A stretch of DNA of 44,025 nt from a virus (Duplodnaviria; Heunggongvirae; Uroviricota; Caudoviricetes): IMG/VR virus record IMGVR_UViG_2917408641_000004; one strand, given 5' to 3'. The notes beneath the pieces are model-generated. The model worked only from the letters and a program-made list of their open reading frames with translations. It did not search any database and was not told the DNA's origin. The position numbers were made by a program, and so were the translations under genes. Positions 4,601 to 24,529 of the stretch are shown here, piece by piece (the first letter of the stretch is position 1; each line of letters opens with the position of its first letter).

Positions 4601-5102
4601 TATCGCGTCCTCAACAATGAATTTTGTGATGCAGTGCCTGGTGCCTCCAGGTGACGTTAACCAGTTAACAATTAACGCCGGATACAGAGAATCCACCCAT
4701 AACACTGTTTTTGGTTTTAACTGTTCCGCGTGCGCTTAGCCGCATTCACCGCATCACAAAATTCACTTTAAAAACGGCGGCAGAGCAGTCACGGAGTAAA
4801 ACTGATACCGCCAAACGTCACCAGAAAATTGATAACAGAGGGCGTTGCAGCGGGGTTGTCACTTAAGCGTATGGTCAACCTGACAACTCGGTGTCCTCAA
4901 CGGGGAAGGAATAACCCCGCCATACTTACCGCCGCGCCATTTCGCGGGTTGCCACAACCGGAAGCGCACGGTCGAATTAAATTTAACGACACCGTACAGT
5001 GAGACGAACTTCGCCGTGCGCTTTCGTGTTGTGTGCCTGCTTTTAACCACGTCAGGCGAGGTGGTATCCTTCTTATCCCGAATAACCAAGAAGGAAATCT
5101 AT

Positions 5103-8179: not shown

Positions 8180-8602
8180 GTGGCAAAAGTTTTTACACAA
8201 GAAGAGCGGGAAAAAATTAAAGGGCAGGTGGTGGAACTCGTGCGCCAGAGCGGTCGTGAGACGTTACGGCAACTGGAAGCTAAAACAGGTGCGACTAGAT
8301 ATCTGATGAGCGTTCTTGCCAGAGAGCTGGTAGCCAGTGGCGATGTATACAACTCCGGCTACGGGTTATTCCCGTCTGAACAGGCGCGTAAGGACTGGCA
8401 AAACGCCCGCAAAAAACTCTCGAGGGCAAAGGTGAAGAAACCTGCTGTGGTTGATCCGGACCTTATCTGGTCATTACCTGACGGAGAAATACGCCGCTAC
8501 GACAGTCGTCTAAACATAATCTGTCGCGAGTGCCGGAAGAGCGAAGTTATGCAGCGTGTTCTGACGTTTTATCAGGGGAATTATCGGGAGGTGATGCTGT
8601 GA
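8180..8602 (+). CDS. Hypothetical phage protein
   Basis: 140 aa; GTG start preceded by strong SD AAGGGGG. Confidence 0.5.
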   Translation: MAKVFTQEEREKIKGQVVELVRQSGRETLRQLEAKTGATRYLMSVLARELVASGDVYNSGYGLFPSEQARKDWQNARKKLSRAKVKKPAVVDPDLIWSLPDGEIRRYDSRLNIICRECRKSEVMQRVLTFYQGNYREVML

Positions 8603-8832
8603 GTACATCGGCTACCATTCTCGACATGTGCTGTGGCAGTCGCATGCTCTGGTTCGATAAGAATGACGAATGGTCGATATTTAGCGATATCAGGAAAGAG
8701 GAACATTCGCTATGTGATGGACGTCACCCGATTATTAATCCCGACATTATCGCTGATTTTCGTGCGCTGCCGTGGTTGTCTGCTTTGCATCAAAAGCAGA
8801 CATTACCAGATTTAGACATCTGTTTCCGATAG
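8600..8832 (+). CDS. Small ORF with SAM-methyltransferase motif I-like segment (possible gene fragment)
   Basis: About 77 aa from GTG 8600 (SD GGAGG upstream); segment [13 protein letters not shown] resembles MTase motif I but the protein is far too short to be a complete methyltransferase. Confidence 0.3.
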
Positions 8833-8864
8833 CCCGTTCTGATGCTACACTTTTTGCTATTTTC

Positions 8865-9551
8865 ATGAACCTCATAAACACATTTATGACTGTTGCTGAT
8901 TTCAAACGCCCCAAATTGGAGCTCCCAAACGGGGCAAAAAAACTATTACTGCACTCTTGCTGTGCTCCATGTTCCGGTGAAGTGATGGAGGCGCTTCAGG
9001 CCTCGGGAATCGACTACACCATCTTTTTCTACAACCCGAACATTCATCCTCAGAAAGAGTATTTAATTCGTAAGGATGAGAATATTCGCTTTGCTAAACA
9101 ACACGGCGTGCCATTTATTGATGCTGATTACGACACAGACAACTGGTTTGAGCGAGCCAAAGGAATGGAATGGGAGCCTGAACGAGGGATCCGTTGTACC
9201 ATGTGTTTTGACATGCGTTTTGAGCGGACTGCACTGTATGCCGCTGAAAATGGTTTCAGTGTGATCAGTAGCTCACTGGGCATTTCACGCTGGAAAAATA
9301 TGCAGCAGGTTAACGACTGTGGACGGCGAGCCGTCGCGCATTATCCGGGCATGGTGTACTGGGATTATAACTGGCGAAAACAGGGCGGCTCTTCCCGCAT
9401 GATTGAAATCAGCAAGCGCGAACAATTCTATCAGCAGGAATATTGTGGCTGCGTGTATTCACTGCGCGATACCAATCTACACCGCAAATCTCAGGGACGC
9501 CCTCTAATCAAAATTGGTCAACTGCACTACGGTAAAGAAGGACAGGAATGA
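8865..9551 (+). CDS. queH: Epoxyqueuosine reductase QueH family protein (DUF208)
   Basis: Cysteine motifs [19 protein letters not shown] and QEYCGCVYS characteristic of QueH; ATG at 8865 chosen because the upstream in-frame extension from 8772 is non-conserved. Confidence 0.75.
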
Positions 9552-9672: not shown

Positions 9673-10163
9673 GAAATTAGAGGAAATCTTGCAGCCATGA
9701 TATGGCTTAAAATAACGTTTGATTATTTTACCTGCTGTTTGTCCCTGGTTTAAAGTCGGTTGTCTGATTTGATTACGCGCAACTGACGCTTACGTATTGA
9801 AGTAACGAGCACGAAGACACATATTTATCAGTGCCTGTATACGTCAAGAGCAGGAGATTTATGTGCTGGTTCTCAAATGCACGCTGGCTATTGTGGCTGT
9901 AATGGCAATTTATTGTCTTGTTATTGTTCTTATGGATCACCTTTCTGATTGATTTCATATTGGCGAGGTAACGGTAGTTAAGTAGAATGGCTGCGGGTGC
10001 TTGAGGCTATCTGCCTCGGGCATGAACACCAACGGCAGATAGAGAAAAGCCCCAGTTAACATTACGCGTCCTGCAAGACGCTTAACATTAATCTGAGGCC
10101 AATTTCATGCTAGACACATGTAGGTTAGCCTCTTACGTGCCGAAAGGCAAGGAGAAGCAGGCT

Positions 10164-10319
10164 ATGAAGCAGCAAAAGGCGATGTTAATCGCCCTGATCG
10201 TCATCTGTTTAACCGTCATAGTGACGGCACTGGTAACGAGGAAAGACCTCTGCGAGGTACGAATCCGAACCGGCCAGACGGAGGTCGCTGTCTTCACAGC
10301 TTACGAACCTGAGGAGTAA
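10164..10319 (+). CDS. hokD: Hok/Gef family type I toxin (HokD/RelF-like)
   Basis: 51-aa product MKQQKAMLIALIVICLTVIVTALVTRKDLCEVRIRTGQTEVAVFTAYEPEE: single TM helix plus conserved Hok C-terminus; SD AAGGAG upstream; 3' hairpins and terminator downstream as in hok mRNAs. Confidence 0.85.
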   Translation: MKQQKAMLIALIVICLTVIVTALVTRKDLCEVRIRTGQTEVAVFTAYEPEE

Positions 10320-10535: not shown

Positions 10536-10772
10536 ATGATGAACATCGAAGAACTGCGTAAAATTTTTTGTGAAGATGGCCTCTATGCTGTGTGCGTTGA
10601 AAATGGAAATCTTGTTAGTCATTACCGCATTATGTGTTTGCGAAAGAATGGGGCTGCGTTAATTAATTTTGTGGATGGTCGAGTGACAGACGGATTTATC
10701 TTGCGCGAAGGTGAGTTTGTCACTTCATTACAGGCACTGAAAGAGATCGGAATAAAAGCAGGCTTTTCGTAA
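10536..10772 (+). CDS. Rem-like small protein, 3' end replaced by IS66-family insertion
   Basis: 78-aa ORF whose last codon and stop are supplied by the IS end; removing the IS and one TSD copy restores an 83-aa ORF ending ..GFSAFAEE, the size I recall for Qin Rem; family call by synteny. Confidence 0.5.
   Translation: MMNIEELRKIFCEDGLYAVCVENGNLVSHYRIMCLRKNGAALINFVDGRVTDGFILREGEFVTSLQALKEIGIKAGFS
10761..10768. repeat. 8-bp target-site duplication of IS66-family element (left copy; right copy 14906-14913)
   Basis: GGCTTTTC directly flanks both imperfect terminal inverted repeats. Confidence 0.8.
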
Positions 10773-11133: not shown

Positions 11134-12559
11134 TAATGCCAGTCAGTTAAGCAACTGACTGGCTCTTTTTCGGGGCTGTGGGGTATTTCCAGGGCCTCTC
11201 CTTTACCACTCTCGGGAAGGCCCTTTCCCTTCTTGTCGGTAATTTCACAAGTTGTCCCATACTTGCAAGATCGCGCATCAGCTCCGGTATACGTCCCGGT
11301 GAAGCGCCCTGCAATGTCATCAGCATTCTCATCACCATTCCGCATGATTCTGAGAAACTCAGTTGATTCGGCCAGTAACCTTTCAGATGTTCTGCCATTT
11401 TAATCATCTGATATCTCACCAGATTATAAGCCAGTAAGACACCCCACAGCTCTTGCTCCACAAGCTCCGGCTTTTTACTTCTCAGCGTCAGCCTGCTCAG
11501 TTGCATCGTCTGTTTTATCTCCCTGTATCCCAGTTCGATTTCCCAGCGATGACTGTACAGATCCGCCATTTCTCCTCCGGGGAAGCGCATGGCGTCCGTC
11601 ATCGACGTCAGCAGATGGCAGACTTTTCCTTTGCGCGTCACGGTCAGCAGGCGGGCTGTCACCTCATTTCCCAGCCCCGGCCACTTTTTTCGTGCCTGCG
11701 GGCTGGTTTTCAGCTTCACCAGATGATCGCCTTTACCCAGTTTTCTGATCTCTTCATATTGCGCTCCCTTTCTGAGAGGGATCATCCAGTGGCGGTGTTC
11801 TCCCGCCTGGCTCCAGGCATTTAACAGTCCCAGTGAGTAATAACCTTTATCCATTAACGTCAGGGTGTTATCGCCGGTTTGTTCTATAAGTTGCTCAGCA
11901 AGCTCATTTTCGCTGTTCTTCATCGTGCCGAAGGCTGCAGCCGTCAGCAGATGGCTGGTCAGTTCCATCTGGCAGACCATTTTGACCTGCGGGTAGAGCG
12001 CCGGGTTCCCGGCATGTGTCTGGCGGGGGAAGGCTGCATCGTTCTCTGGTGTATCCGGTGTGCGCCAGAACACACCATCGATGGCCAGCAGGGTCAGGCC
12101 GCACCAGTGCGGATGCGGCGTGGCGTTATGCCAGAGCTGCGCTGTTTTCGTGAACACGCGGCGGACAGCCTCACTTCCCAGACGCTGGCGGGCCTGAATA
12201 ACGGCACTGGGGGCAACGAAGGGGCGATTGCCCGGCAGCATGATGTCCAGGCGATTCACAATCTGGTGAAGAGGTTCTTTACGCTCAAGCGCCATGCCAA
12301 CAATACACCAGACCATCATTTCGAGGGGAAGACGGCGCTTGCGTAGCGTTACAGTACCTGATTCGGCAAGGCAACGAGAGATGAGTTCGGGGTCGAGGTA
12401 ATCCCCCAGAGAAGTCAGTGGGTTACGCAGAGAATCGTAACGGGATACCAAATCAAGGGCCTGTCCAATGAGCATAAAAAAATCCGGAAACGAGTGAGCG
12501 TTTCCGGATTCTTACACAGCCACTGGATCGGTCAACTGATCCTTAACTGATCGGCATTA
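11134..12559 (-). mobile_element. IS4, complete copy
   Basis: 1426 bp, matching the known IS4 length; terminal inverted repeats TAATGCC(A/G)..TCAGTTAAG; single 442-aa transposase; 12-bp TSD within the expected 11-13 bp range. Confidence 0.9.
11147..12475 (-). CDS. insG: IS4 transposase
   Basis: 442-aa ORF filling the IS4 element; IS4-family DDE transposase. Confidence 0.9.
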
Positions 12560-12571: not shown

Positions 12572-12936
12572 AACTTCCCTTATGAGTTTAAAATCGCCTT
12601 AGTGGAGCAGTCACTGCAGCCCGGAGCCTGTGTGGCGCAGATCGCCCGGGAAAACGGAATCAACGATAACCTGCTCTTCAACTGGCGCCATCAATACCGG
12701 AAAGGTGGCCTGCTGCCTTCCGGAAAAAATATGCCGGCACTGCTTCCCGTGACGTTAACGCCGGAGCCGGATAATAAAATCCCGGCCCCCGCACAGGAAC
12801 CAGAGCAGATAAATACACCGTCCGACAGTCTGTGTTGTGAGCTGGTTCTGCCGGCCGGAACTCTCAGGCTTAAAGGTAAACTGACGCCGGCGTTATTACA
12901 GACACTTATCCGCGAAATAAAAGGGAGCAGCCACTG

Positions 12937-13284
12937 ATGATATCTCTCCCTGCCGGTTCGCGTATCTGGCTGGTTGCAGGTATCACCGATATGCGAAATG
13001 GCTTTAACGGCCTGGCATCAAAAGTTCAGAACGTCCTGAAGGATGACCCGTTCTCCGGACACCTGTTCATCTTCCGCGGACGCCGGGGTGACCAGATAAA
13101 AGTGTTGTGGGCTGACAGTGACGGACTGTGCCTCTTCACCAAACGCCTGGAGCGGGGCCGCTTCGTCTGGCCAGTCACCCGTGACGGCAAGGTGCACCTT
13201 ACTCCGGCTCAGTTATCCATGCTTCCTGAAGGTATCAACTGGAAGCACCCGAAACGAACGGAACGCGCTGGAATCCGCATATAA
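12937..13284 (+). CDS. tnpB: IS66-family TnpB (Orf2)
   Basis: 115 aa; start overlaps tnpA stop (ATGA); typical IS66 Orf2 sequence (..IWLVAGITDMRNGFNGLA..). Confidence 0.85.
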   Translation: MISLPAGSRIWLVAGITDMRNGFNGLASKVQNVLKDDPFSGHLFIFRGRRGDQIKVLWADSDGLCLFTKRLERGRFVWPVTRDGKVHLTPAQLSMLPEGINWKHPKRTERAGIRI

Positions 13285-13303
13285 CCCGTTGTAAAGTGAG
13301 GAT

Positions 13304-14875
13304 ATGGACACCTCACTTGCTCATGAGAACGCCCGCCTGCGGGCACTGTTGCAGACGCAACAGGACACCATCCGCCAGATGGCTGAATACAACCGCCTGC
13401 TCTCACAGCGGGTGGCGGCTTATGCTTCCGAAATCAACCGGCTGAAGGCGCTGGTTGCGAAACTGCAACGTATGCAGTTCGGTAAAAGCTCAGAAAAACT
13501 TCGTGCAAAAACCGAACGGCAGATACAGGAAGCTCAGGAGCGAATCAGCGCACTTCAGGAAGAAATGGCGGAAACGCTGGGTGAGCAATATGACCCGGTA
13601 CTGCCATCCGCCCTGCGCCAGTCTTCAGCCCGTAAACCGTTACCGGCCTCACTTCCCCGTGAAACCCGGGTTATCCGGCCGGAAGAGGAATGCTGTCCTG
13701 CCTGTGGTGGTGAACTCAGTTCTCTGGGATGTGATGTGTCAGAGCAACTGGAGCTTATCAGCAGCGCCTTTAAGGTTATCGAAACACAACGTCCGAAACT
13801 GGCCTGTTGCCGGTGCGACCATATCGTGCAGGCACCAGTACCTTCAAAACCCATTGCACGCAGTTATGCCGGAGCGGGGCTTCTGGCCCATGTTGTCACC
13901 GGGAAATATGCAGACCATCTGCCGTTATACCGCCAGTCAGAAATATACCGTCGTCAGGGAGTGGAGCTGAGCCGTGCCACACTGGGGCGCTGGACCGGTG
14001 CCGTTGCTGAACTGCTGGAGCCGCTGTATGACGTCCTGCGCCAGTATGTGCTGATGCCCGGTAAAGTCCATGCCGATGATATCCCCGTCCCGGTCCAGGA
14101 GCCGGGCAGCGGTAAAACCCGGACAGCCCGGCTGTGGGTCTACGTCCGTGATGACCGCAACGCCGGTTCACAGATGCCCCCGGCGGTCTGGTTCGCGTAC
14201 AGTCCGGACCGGAAAGGTATCCATCCACAAAATCACCTGGCCGGTTACAGCGGTGTGCTTCAGGCCGATGCTTACGGTGGTTACCGGGCGTTATACGAAT
14301 CCGGCAGAATAACGGAAGCCGCGTGTATGGCTCATGCCCGGAGAAAAATCCACGATGTGCATGCAAGAGCGCCCACCGACATCACCACGGAAGCCCTGCA
14401 GCGTATCGGTGAACTGTATGCTATCGAGGCAGAGGTCCGGGGCTGTTCAGCAGAACAGCGTCTGGCGGCAAGAAAAGCCAGAGCCGCGCCACTGATGCAG
14501 TCACTGTATGACTGGATACAGCAACAGATGAAAACACTGTCGCGTCACTCAGATACGGCAAAAGCGTTCGCATACCTGCTGAAACAGTGGGATGCACTGA
14601 ACGTGTACTGCAGTAATGGCTGGGTGGAAATCGACAACAACATCGCAGAGAACGCCTTACGGGGAGTGGCCGTAGGCCGGAAAAACTGGATGTTCGCGGG
14701 TTCCGACAGCGGTGGTGAACATGCGGCGGTGTTGTACTCGCTGATCGGCACATGCCGTCTGAACAATGTGGAGCCAGAAAAGTGGCTGCGTTACGTCATT
14801 GAACATATCCAGGACTGGCCGGCAAACCGGGTACGCGATCTGTTGCCCTGGAAAGTTGATCTGAGCTCTCAGTAA
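13304..14875 (+). CDS. tnpC: IS66-family transposase TnpC
   Basis: 523 aa; N-terminal coiled-coil/leucine zipper, CxxC..CxxC zinc motif (CPACGG..CCRCDH) and DDE-type C-terminal region characteristic of IS66 transposases. Confidence 0.85.
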
Positions 14876-19209: not shown

Positions 19210-19422
19210 TCATGAAAGGTAAACATTGGCAGCTGAAGGGCCACGCAGACCATTTATCCGGCAAAATTCCACGCGTAATCCGGTGGTAATTTCTTCTGCA
19301 TCGCGGAGATTGAGCGCTGAAACATGAAGCTGGACATCGATACGACCATCGGATGGGGTGATAAGACCCTTGCCGCTTTTGCCGTCAAAGGTTTTGACAA
19401 TTCCTGTCATTTTACGGGACAA
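19210..19422 (-). CDS. cspF: Cold-shock-like protein, CspF/CspH subfamily
   Basis: 70-aa product [40 protein letters not shown]; divergent from cspB as in the Qin prophage; cannot exclude cspH assignment. Confidence 0.75.
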
Positions 19423-19722
19423 AAAAATTCCTTAATACTGATAACTTGGCGCACTATACACACGTTCCTGAAGAAAGCTATAGTTTTTTGATGGGGTTGA
19501 AGATGGCTGGATGTCTAAAATAAACATTGCTTCATATGTTCAACTATGCGTTAATGATTGCGTCGGTTTGAAGAACAGACGATATACGAAGTAGTTTACT
19601 AAAGCAGTTCTCATTTCAGGTGTTATTCACTTATTCCTTCTTTGAGTCTCTCCAATTAAGTACGAAGTCGTTTCTGTTATACAAGCCATTTATGCCGAAA
19701 GGCTCAAGTTAAGGAATGTAGA

Positions 19723-19938
19723 ATGTCAAATAAAATGACTGGTTTAGTAAAATGGTTTAACGCTGATAAAGGTTTTGGCTTTATTTCTCCTGTTGATGGT
19801 AGTAAAGATGTGTTTGTGCATTTTTCTGCGATTCAGAATGATAATTTTCGAACCTTATTTGAAGGTCAAAAGGTTACCTTCTCTGTAGAGAGTGGTGCTA
19901 AAGGTCCTGCAGCAGCAAATGTCATAATTACTGATTAA
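19723..19938 (+). CDS. cspB: Cold-shock protein CspB
   Basis: 71-aa product [38 protein letters not shown]..; CspA-family RNP motifs. Confidence 0.8.
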
Positions 19939-20221
19939 AATTAATAGTTTGTCTGTATACGATAACGAAGAAGGCTGATGCCTGAGTGGAGATACAGACA
20001 GAGTGGTGAATATTGGATCTCTTTAATAAATAGTAAGGAGATCCAATACATGAAACAATGACCAGCATATTTGGCAATAACTTAATCAGGAAAAGTATGC
20101 TAACCATTGTGGTGAAGTGCAGGTTTGCTGCATGAATAGTTTTACAGCAGAAGCTAACTGCTAGCATAGCAAAACAAAGTGCGTAAGTGGATGACTCCCA
20201 CAAAAAGCACCACAATATTAA

Positions 20222-20690: not shown

Positions 20691-20906
20691 ATGAAATCAA
20701 TGGATAAGTTAACAACAGGTATCGCCTATGGCACATCGGCTGGTAATGCTGGTTTCTGGGCATTGCAGTTACTCGATAAAGTAACTCCGTCACAGTGGGC
20801 TGCAATCGGTGTGCTGGGTAGTCTGGTTTTTGGCCTGCTGACATATCTGACAAACCTTTATTTCAAGATTAAAGAAGACAGGCGTAAGGTTGCGAGAAGA
20901 GAGTAA
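20691..20906 (+). CDS. Class II holin (phage 21 S-type pinholin)
   Basis: 71 aa; dual-start MKSM motif; two TM segments; sequence ..[58 protein letters not shown] typical of S21/EssD. Confidence 0.85.
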
Positions 20907-20910
20907 TCCA

Positions 20911-21462
20911 ATGACACAAGTCTATGAACTGGTTGTGAAAGGAGTCCGCAATTTTGAGAATAAAGTGGCGGTAACTGTAGCCTTACGGGACAAAAAACGC
21001 TTTGACGGTGAAATTTTTGACCTGGACATCTCGCTGGACCGTGTTGAAGGTGCCGCGCTGGAGTTTTATGAGGCAGCAGCGAGAAGGAGCATTAGACAGT
21101 TCTTCCTGGATGTTGCTGCCGGGTTATGTGAAGGGGATGAGCAGTCGCCGGAAAAGCGCCCCATAATTTTAGAGGCGCAGAATGTGTGGATAACCTACAA
21201 AGGAAAGCTACCGGGAAGAATTACTGGTTCTCTGAAGACGCCACCGACGGCATTGCGGTCAGAAAAAGATGATATTGAATCGCCCATTGAAAAACTGGAG
21301 GGCAGCGTCGCTGATCTGAATAAAAAATTGTCGGTGCTGATTCCTTCTGAAGATGAAAAAAAACGCCGCGATGAGCAGTTTGCGGCGTTTTACGATTATT
21401 GCATTGAAGTTACTCGCAGGAATTTTGTGAAGATTTTTGAGGAGGGTAAATCTCTTCAGTAA
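20911..21462 (+). CDS. Hypothetical protein inserted between holin and endolysin (YdfR/DUF1327-like by position)
   Basis: 183 aa from ATG 20911 just after holin stop; same strand as the lysis genes. Confidence 0.5.
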   Translation: MTQVYELVVKGVRNFENKVAVTVALRDKKRFDGEIFDLDISLDRVEGAALEFYEAAARRSIRQFFLDVAAGLCEGDEQSPEKRPIILEAQNVWITYKGKLPGRITGSLKTPPTALRSEKDDIESPIEKLEGSVADLNKKLSVLIPSEDEKKRRDEQFAAFYDYCIEVTRRNFVKIFEEGKSLQ

Positions 21463-21783: not shown

Positions 21784-22811
<1,028 letters not shown>

Positions 22812-23174
22812 ATTAATATTAAATCGGATTATTTTTAGCGCTGAATGTGAAATTTAAATAAAAAGGACTCTTCCATGAGTCAAAATCCTTGAAATCTTAA
22901 GGGTAAGATAAAAGGTCATTAGACAGAATGACACGTTTTATTAATAAATAAAGCTATTGTTTCATTCGTGTGTTTTTCTTTACAAAAGTAATCCTTGCTA
23001 TGGTTGGTTAATCATGCGTTAATGGTGTTCTGGTTTGTTACAAAATTATCTGAAGCAGTCATTGTTATAATTTTATTATTTGTACCTCTTGAGATTTCCT
23101 TGTTGGTTTTTCTCTCTGATATTTTTTTTCGGACCATTCTGCCCAAGGGCTAACTTCTTCAAAAGGTAATAATG

Positions 23175-23387
23175 ATGTCTAACAAAATGACTGGTTTAGT
23201 GAAATGGTTTAACCCTGAAAAAGGTTTTGGTTTCATCACGCCGAAAGATGGTAGCAAAGATGTGTTTGTCCATTTCTCAGCTATTCAGAGCAACGATTTC
23301 AAAACGTTAACTGAGAATCAGGAAGTCGAATTTGGTATTGAGAACGGACCTAAAGGCCCCGCGGCTGTTCATGTTGTGGCACTTTGA
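23175..23387 (+). CDS. cspI: Cold-shock protein CspI
   Basis: 70-aa product [70 protein letters not shown]. Confidence 0.8.
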
Positions 23388-23594
23388 GGTAGAAAATATT
23401 ACAAACCATATTCACTTTAGATGCCCGTGTTGCCATGGTTCTCAGTATAGAACATCATCTTTTGATGTTTCTGACAGGAATCCTTTCGGGGCAAAATGTA
23501 TCTTTTGTAAATCAATGATGATTACATTTGATAATATTTCACAATACTTAAATGTTAGCCGTCTGTCGTTAGATTTAAGAAAGTGAAAATGAAG

Positions 23595-23658: not shown

Positions 23659-23889
23659 ATGAAAAAAATAATAGTTTTTTTTAACTCTGAACCAGCAATG
23701 GTAGTGCCAGTGATGACCGGAGTTAACACCATCATGCGTGAATATCCAAATGGCGAAACAACACACCTCACTGTAATGGCTGCAGGGTTTCCATCTCTGA
23801 CCGGAGATCATAAAGTCATTTATGTAGCAGCGGATCGACATGTAACTTCAGAAGAAATTCTGGAAGCAGCAATGAGACTCTTGAATTGA
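23659..23889 (+). CDS. Hypothetical small protein
   Basis: 76 aa from ATG 23659; weak RBS; protein-like composition. Confidence 0.35.
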   Translation: MKKIIVFFNSEPAMVVPVMTGVNTIMREYPNGETTHLTVMAAGFPSLTGDHKVIYVAADRHVTSEEILEAAMRLLN

Positions 23890-24058
23890 TTTGATTCTAA
23901 TGCATTGATAATAAATGATAGTCATCTTTATCTGTTTGTGTGAAATTTAGACCGTCGTATGTTGATTATTGCGATGTTTCATCTTATCTTTTATACGTTT
24001 GCTCCATATAATTGACACTACTGTGTACCAGGAAAGTCATAACAGACTAAAAGAGGAA

Positions 24059-24234
24059 ATGATGAACATTGAAGAGTTAAAAACAAAAACAGAAGCAGAT
24101 ATTTCTGAATATATAACAAAAAAATCATTGAGCTTAAGAAAAAGACCGGGAAAGAAGTTACCAGTATCCAGTTTACTGCACGGGAAAAAATGACTGGTCT
24201 TGAAAGCTATGATATCAAGATTGATTTAATCTAG
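24059..24234 (+). pseudogene. gnsB: gnsB-like gene with -1 frameshift in an A7 tract
   Basis: SD AAGAGG then MMNIEELKTKTEADISEYITKK; frame breaks at the A7 run 24118-24124; the shifted frame continues ..KIIELKKKTGKEVTSIQFTAREKMTGLESYDIKIDLI to stop at 24234, matching GnsA/GnsB proteins end to end. Confidence 0.6.
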
Positions 24235-24529
24235 TATGTTTATAGTATTAGCATCAATTTCTCATCAGATGCTATTCAACAATACAAATTACCCATAAAC
24301 CTCGTTTTTACGGGGTTTTGTTATATTTAAACATTACCGAATAGGTATAAATCTCGATTGTCGATGGTATTGGTTGTGTGACAATACCTAGTCTTTCCGG
24401 TATGCCTGAAGAGAATACAAACGACAGATTATGTAAGGGAAACGCGCTGAAACTTTCACTCTTTCATGCTGAGTGATTTGACGTTATATTTTTAGCCGCA
24501 AGTGAAGAGCAAACGCATGGAGCGACAAA

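Follow-up and report, generated by a model that had tools for sequence, protein, structure and literature searches.

Is a prophage gene whose two halves lie in different reading frames, on either side of a run of adenines, a real pseudogene, a homopolymer sequencing error, or a slippery site at which some ribosomes restore the frame? The question is raised by a gnsB-like gene in the IMG/VR virus record IMGVR_UViG_2917408641_000004 (Caudoviricetes), a stretch of 44,025 nt that we call the window. The original prediction listed all three readings and also proposed that the gene and a rem-like neighbour form a small paralogous family. We compared the locus with protein families, complete Escherichia coli genomes, phage and metagenomic records, and the literature on recoding.

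Reading frames and identity of the interrupted gene

The reading-frame check of the window placed two start codons, in frame with each other, at the 5' end of the locus (ATG ATG, 24059-24064). In the 0 frame, 22 codons (MMNIEELKTKTEADISEYITKK) lead into a run of exactly seven A, with c (24117) before it and t (24125) after it; the frame then continues as SLSLRKRPGKKLPVSSLLHGKK until it meets TGA (24191-24193). Read from 24124, the -1 frame gives IIELKKKTGKEVTSIQFTAREKMTGLESYDIKIDLI (36 codons) and ends at a TAG at 24232-24234, the native stop, which the TGA of the encoded ORF precedes by 41 nt. Counts, frames and stops confirm the claim that segments of 22 and 36 codons lie in different frames and join seamlessly once A7 is read as A8. 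The second ATG (24062) lies 5 nt past a GAGG core (24053-24056) and is the start that PGAP assigns to intact gnsB. Across the C-terminal part, the ORF search of the window found none of 20 aa or more that has a start codon of its own. Comparison of species-representative loci places the best-conserved block of the family (KTGKEV...F.AREKMTGLE.YD.KI.LI) in the -1 segment. Apart from the missing A, the coding sequence of the window equals the A8 allele of strain L725, with one silent difference relative to that of E. coli 13E0780. Since it shows no secondary decay, it gives no proof that the gene has long been a pseudogene.

Table 1. Features of the gnsB locus and of the surrounding prophage (positions in the window; empty cells where no strand or remark applies).
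Feature	Position	Strand	Basis or remark
DicF sRNA	4775-4826	-	typical of Qin-type prophages, like the feature at 9995-10319
IS4-family transposase	11147-12475	-	interrupts prophage
IS66-family unit, three ORFs	12602-14875		transposase 13304-14875; interrupts prophage
csp paralogue, opposite orientation	19210-19422	-	adjoins cspB-like gene (19723-19938)
cspA thermoregulator RNA (5' of cspI)	23017-23433		Rfam
cspI	23172-23387	+	synteny with annotated relatives; conserved cold-shock cargo cluster
ymcF/ynfQ	within 23332-23586	+	synteny and Pfam YmcF-like
ynfN	23659-23889	+	synteny; intact in window
gnsB pseudogene, Qin-type prophage allele	24059-24234	+	first ATG to native stop; 1-nt deletion inside
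Encoded ORF	24062-24193	+	43 aa (44 aa from 24059): 21-22 native GnsB residues and 22-aa basic out-of-frame tail
A7 tract, 1-nt deletion site	24118-24124	+	A8 in intact alleles
-1 frame segment, GnsB residues 23-58	24124-24234	+	36 codons and TAG
Terminator-like hairpin, then T-rich tail	24297-24318	+	3' of gnsB
Mutator/IS256-type transposase	42817-44025	-	starts at the last base of the window; element extends past the window

Restoring the eighth A yields a product of 58 aa that matches the Pfam family PF08178 (GnsAB_toxin) over the whole profile (positions 1-54 of 54, 114.4 bits for a cutoff of 27, E=2e-33) and aligns without gaps to the GnsA structures PDB 4XO1 and 4XO2 (E=8e-20). Translated from the second ATG, it matches WP_001019207.1, the product of the intact gnsB of E. 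coli 13E0780, at 100% identity, and the K-12-type GnsB at 93%. The alignment to GnsA and GnsB that had been proposed as a check is thus full-length to the family profile, ungapped to GnsA and identical to an intact GnsB. This agreement of frame, profile and structure is far beyond chance. The product as encoded scores 45 bits and covers only positions 1-32 of the profile.

Because the repaired product is identical to an intact GnsB and the gene follows cspI, ymcF/ynfQ and ynfN, we regard it as gnsB itself, which is more than the gnsB-like gene first proposed. The Qin prophage of E. coli carries the same gene in the same synteny (GnsA/GnsB family, PF08178; the paralogue GnsA is the protein of 4XO1/4XO2). 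The window copy differs from it by the loss of one A of A8, and its encoded protein retains 21-22 of 57 residues. A functional member of the family, which NCBI and Pfam label "addiction module toxin", should be an intact single-domain protein of ~57 aa. The encoded ORF has 43 or 44 aa, the last 22 of which are unrelated to GnsB, and this makes it a pseudogene of the family and not a functional member.

Prophage context

The gene lies in the late region of a Qin-like lambdoid prophage, in the order rrrQ (lysozyme), rzpQ (DUF2514), cspI, ymcF/ynfQ, ynfN, gnsB; the last four are the synteny that marks gnsB-type loci in such regions. Beyond gnsB follow a gene for a hypothetical protein of 68 aa, a DUF1441 gene and the large terminase subunit. 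The Rfam scan of the window found no RNA family over gnsB, and a promoter scan of the plus strand of the ynfN-gnsB interval found no consensus promoter. By eye only, a TATAAT without mismatch (24007-24012) and a weak -35 can be made out. Three insertion sequences interrupt the prophage (Table 1), indicating that it is decaying, which fits the presence of pseudogenes among its cargo.

Several other features of the prophage are worth recording. With cspI, the cspB-like gene and the csp paralogue in opposite orientation, it has three cold-shock-domain genes. A second cspA-type thermoregulator leader (19562-20001) accompanies the cspB-like gene, 3.5 kb upstream of the cspI cluster. The early region encodes a QueH homologue (epoxyqueuosine reductase, PF02677, E=3e-65) at 8772-9551, with a short ORF fragment (8530-8832) directly upstream. 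A ydfR-like DUF1327 ORF (20890-21462) has 190 aa for 103 aa in relatives; PGAP describes the equivalent in close relatives as incomplete, and the ORF of the window is probably a fusion or a rearranged remnant.

The rem-like gene that had been called a neighbour of gnsB lies at 10536-10772, i.e. 13.3 kb upstream and beyond the IS4 and IS66 insertions. The N-terminus MMNIEEL that the two proteins were said to share is indeed present in both (MMNIEEL(K/R), 7 of 8 residues, pairwise BLASTP E=0.002). Read by eye, the starts of the two genes share only ATGATGAACATyGAAGArytr, and their codons differ at four synonymous positions. BLASTP aligned residues 1-8 only, the upstream DNA is unrelated, and Rem gave no match to the GnsAB Pfam profile at E<=0.1. 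We therefore dropped the idea of a rem/gnsB family for want of any link beyond these eight residues. The likeness would be a short N-terminal coincidence or a convergence, with no evidence of a family.

Distribution of tract lengths

We counted tract lengths by exact full-length matches of 76-78 nt around the tract in 5,426 complete RefSeq E. coli genomes. The census returned 25 records with A7, 549 with A8 and a single one with A9, so that A7 makes up 4.4% and A8 ~96% of the copies of the window's gnsB allele. The K-12-type allele aligns without gaps to the A8 version and is in frame, reading ACAAAAAAAATT. All 12 inspected A7 carriers are called "GnsA/GnsB family addiction module toxin, frameshifted" by PGAP; their sources were chicken, cattle, beef, pig, dog, giant panda, human and wastewater, or were unspecified. 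The frameshifted gnsB genes that RefSeq/PGAP annotates in USDA-ARS-USMARC-49610, LWY6, 13C1079T, STEC313 and TA8571 have the identical A7 lesion in identical 76 nt. In its flanks, the window has the rarer haplotype alpha, and most carriers have beta. The exact truncated product of 43 aa was found on 659 contigs of a collection of 15 billion proteins (NCBI, ENA, Logan). These loci come from NCBI drafts, Logan read-run assemblies and ENA metagenomes, short-read assemblies included, and the decay of the downstream prophage varies among them.

Tracts of eight A prevail elsewhere. A8 is present in five lambdoid phage records, and the active phages 2H10, HannyBb, mEp460_ev081 and PhiR63_1 are among the carriers. 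Among the IMG/VR copies listed, 78 of 80 have A8, one has A7 (~1%) and one has A9. The species-representative loci of Escherichia, Shigella and Citrobacter are all in frame at the tract (16/16). A8 is in frame in K-12, E. ruysiae, Shigella and most Citrobacter, and some Citrobacter runs are broken by AAG or by ACT/ACC.

Two further loci deserve mention. In E. coli ECGI0523 (CP178306.1, 1501-1669), a K-12-type gnsB has CTTAAG changed to CTAAG 12 nt past the A8 tract; given this different frameshift, gnsB has been inactivated in more than one way. A contig of 22.9 kb labelled "MAG: Veillonella parvula" (JAGZPX010000007.1) encodes a gnsB product identical to that of E. coli K-12 and is almost certainly a mis-binned Escherichia contig.

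Haplotypes and the reality of the A7 allele

To see whether the A7 records descend from one event or from many, we compared the window with 22 A7 and 7 A8 carriers in an alignment of 1.5 kb that includes gnsB and its surroundings. The A7 coding sequence was identical in all aligned carriers, and the flanks defined several haplotypes; the SNPs nearest to the tract that separate alpha from beta are at 24034 (84 nt upstream) and 24235 (111 nt downstream). Haplotype alpha comprises, with A7, the window and L001, and L001 equals the A8 carrier L002 at informative sites. Haplotype beta1 is represented by seven mutually identical A7 assemblies, whose origins span at least four countries (among them China, Hong Kong and France). 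The four A7 carriers of beta2 (L008, L138, L139 and L143) equal the A8 carrier L019 at informative sites, as does the A7 carrier of beta4 (L145) with respect to the A8 carrier L018. Haplotype beta3 is found with A7 in L141 and L142, and the other A7 haplotypes are those of L004, L007 and L144 (beta-like variants), of L010/L011 and of L012. The A7 tract is thus present on at least four backgrounds, three of which match an A8 carrier at every informative site. Because A7 occurs on several haplotypes with identical A8 twins, the change between A8 and A7 has taken place several times, at a tract that is a mutational hot spot.

Could the A7 of the window nonetheless be an artefact, the source strain having A8 and an intact gnsB from which one A was dropped in base-calling or consensus? 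Long-read sequencing is prone to just this error, one base lost from a homopolymer of 8 nt. The 3.6-kb haplotype of the window has no exact match in complete E. coli genomes (best 99.5%), and its closest relatives over this length have A8, as an artefact would have it. However, the identical A7 recurs in 25 complete genomes from many laboratories and, through its product, on contigs that include Logan and metagenomic assemblies. The beta1 haplotype, common to seven assemblies, indicates clonal inheritance, so that its A7 is no error. Two further A8 tracts of this prophage, scored as controls over the same genomes, tell how often such a base is lost for technical reasons: the one in rzpQ (22393-22400) is A7 in 2/607 genomes, and the one at 21356-21363 gave no full-length exact A7 among ~324 genomes. 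These values (0.3% and ~0%) set a ceiling on technical errors that is far lower than the 4.4% at gnsB. Moreover, the window homopolymers that we compared, T8 at 23122-23129 and T8 at 23675-23682, have the same length as in relatives, and the window keeps ORFs of 699-1137 aa without a break. We hold the artefact to be unlikely, and the A7 allele is probably none of this assembly's making. Of the three original readings, that of a real pseudogene is the one that the 25 complete genomes, the PGAP calls and the 659 contigs sustain.

The slippery heptamer

The third reading, a slippery site, stood in one part only. The codons at the tract (aca|aaa|aaa|tca) form an X_XXY_YYZ heptamer in the 0-frame register, A_AAA_AAA, at 24118-24124, exactly placed for a -1 shift, and some leak is expected for this reason. 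What did not hold was the idea of an evolved signal. The fold of 24125-24215 was non-significant (z=-1.6, 17/200 shuffles as stable), with a weak long-range helix only, and 24095-24117 contains no GGAGG-like sequence that could act as an upstream Shine-Dalgarno (SD)-like element. The out-of-frame arrangement was not conserved across K-12, the five phages, the 16/16 representatives or the census (549 A8 for 25 A7). A7 and A8 alleles have identical flanks, hence nothing has co-evolved with the shift.

Published values allow the leak to be estimated. Background frameshifting is 0.055%, and motifs without a stimulator reach 2.1-10x background, A_AA.A_AA.A being among those above 0.10% (Sharma et al. 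2014, PMC4066793). For RNA polymerase, efficient slippage is placed at stretches of 9 A or T (Atkins et al. 2016, PMC5009743). Since the values for stimulator-free motifs imply a rescue of a fraction of a percent, they suggest an incidental leak of full-length GnsB of roughly 0.1-0.5%, with no programmed mechanism.

It is important to weigh these results against the possibility that A7 is itself an adaptation, in which programmed -1 frameshifting or transcriptional slippage would deliver a low dose of a toxic full-length GnsB. The heptamer is canonical and sits precisely in register; IS elements use A_AAA_AAA, which shifts at >0.1% without stimulators; and the downstream frame is intact but for the missing A, matching intact alleles. 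There is also the precedent of the "savior indel" in herpes simplex virus (HSV) thymidine kinase (PMC5009743). Yet SD-like element and significant fold are both missing from the intervals searched, the flanks do not distinguish A7 from A8 alleles, and the 7 A fall short of the 9 A or T at which RNA polymerase slips efficiently (PMC5009743). The predominance of A8, in ~96% of allele copies, K-12, five phages, 78/80 of the IMG/VR copies listed and 16/16 representatives, also speaks against it. We consider evolved recoding extremely improbable.

The -1 sites of IS1/IS3-family elements and of dnaX (A_AAA_AAG / A_AAA_AAA) resemble gnsB in having the heptamer in register and a functional continuation in the -1 frame. 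In contrast to them, gnsB showed neither a stimulatory stem-loop or pseudoknot nor an SD-like element, its shifted arrangement lacks conservation, and a recent deletion produced it in a gene that is normally in frame. The G7/G8 "savior/problem indel" of HSV thymidine kinase (PMC5009743) is similar in that a homopolymer indel inactivates the gene and slippage could restore a trace of product. For gnsB, however, there is no sign that a trace product is made or matters, and no selective agent is known.

Homopolymers in adjacent cargo genes

The adjacent gene ynfN has two homopolymers within its first 8 codons, A7 at 23662-23668 and T8 at 23675-23682. The T8 is shortened to T7, with a frameshift, in 32-34 complete E. 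coli genomes compared with 439 that have T8 (~7%), and ynfN is annotated as frameshifted in K-12 MG1655 and PCN061. Because of this annotation, the K-12 YnfN, which we take to have 51 aa, appears to be the frameshift remnant of a 76-aa protein. A third tract, T8 at 23122-23129 in the 5' leader of cspI and inside the thermoregulator match, is also polymorphic in length, with T7 in L001 and L012.

Such tracts invite the idea of a contingency switch, i.e. that A8 is kept so that lineages can turn gnsB off and on reversibly. A8 is conserved across Escherichia and most Citrobacter, although a synonymous AAG could break the run; but AAA AAA can also be conserved through Lys codon preference in an AT-rich gene. 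Tract length is polymorphic on otherwise identical backgrounds, with A7 and A8 on identical haplotypes in at least three cases (L001/L002, the L008 group/L019 and L145/L018), but the direction of change cannot be read from these data, and a tract of 8 nt is short for a classical contingency locus. The -1 variants reach 4.4% at gnsB and ~7% at the ynfN T8 compared with 0-0.3% at control A8 tracts, these being counts of genomes and not of events. Relaxed or positive selection for loss, together with clonal descent, can account for the enrichment, and the excess of A7 at gnsB over controls does reflect clonal descent in part. Furthermore, A9 is nearly absent (1 genome), and A7 is ~1% among the IMG/VR copies listed. 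We judge a contingency switch highly improbable. A broader version, in which the gnsB A8 and the ynfN T8 are mutational switches by which selection repeatedly silences, and possibly restores, small prophage-borne modulators of cold shock and membrane lipids, while the A_AAA_AAA register of the OFF allele gives a physiologically relevant trickle of full-length GnsB, also seems to us quite improbable.

Consequences of the frameshift

We think it likely that the locus holds a genuine loss-of-function allele of gnsB, which encodes 57 aa and belongs to the cargo of a Qin-like lambdoid prophage of E. coli. Strand slippage during replication would have removed one A from the conserved A8, as expected from what is established about homopolymer indels; the A8 spans the codons for Thr20-Lys21-Lys22-Ile23 (ACA AAA AAA ATC). 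By the sequence, translation now yields a peptide of 43 or 44 aa with the first 21-22 residues of GnsB and 22 unrelated basic residues, and residues 23-57, the best-conserved part of the family, are replaced or lost. We infer loss of function from the truncation of these conserved C-terminal 35 residues. The same deletion has arisen several times in E. coli and is passed on within lineages. The A_AAA_AAA register may still let a small, unselected fraction of ribosomes make full-length GnsB, to which rare slippage of RNA polymerase could add.

The activities that would be lost are known from overexpression. Raised levels of gnsA or gnsB increase unsaturated fatty acids and suppress the defects of fabA6 and secG-null strains (Sugai 2001, as cited in PMC10607373 and bioRxiv 10.1101/2024.03.27.586906). 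A cold-sensitive relA fadR strain is rescued by pCAgnsB (bioRxiv 10.1101/2024.03.27.586906), and overexpression raises the number of persisters to ampicillin (gnsA and gnsB) and to gentamicin (gnsB) (bioRxiv 10.1101/310961).

Since the same broken allele recurs in hundreds of other E. coli assemblies and existing annotation treats it as a pseudogene, it is a real variant of a known prophage gene, and an ordinary one, with loss of function. Outside annotation it is of little consequence; there, the proper label is frameshifted gnsB pseudogene, neither a new gene nor a recoding site. Beyond this locus, gnsB and ynfN, two adjacent small cargo genes of Qin-like prophages, undergo recurrent loss through 8-nt homopolymers in 4-7% of carriers. 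Because frameshifts are at 0-0.3% in the control tracts, this hints that their loss is tolerated or favoured; for gnsB, a toxin-like gene, that would fit the 4.4% of A7 copies.
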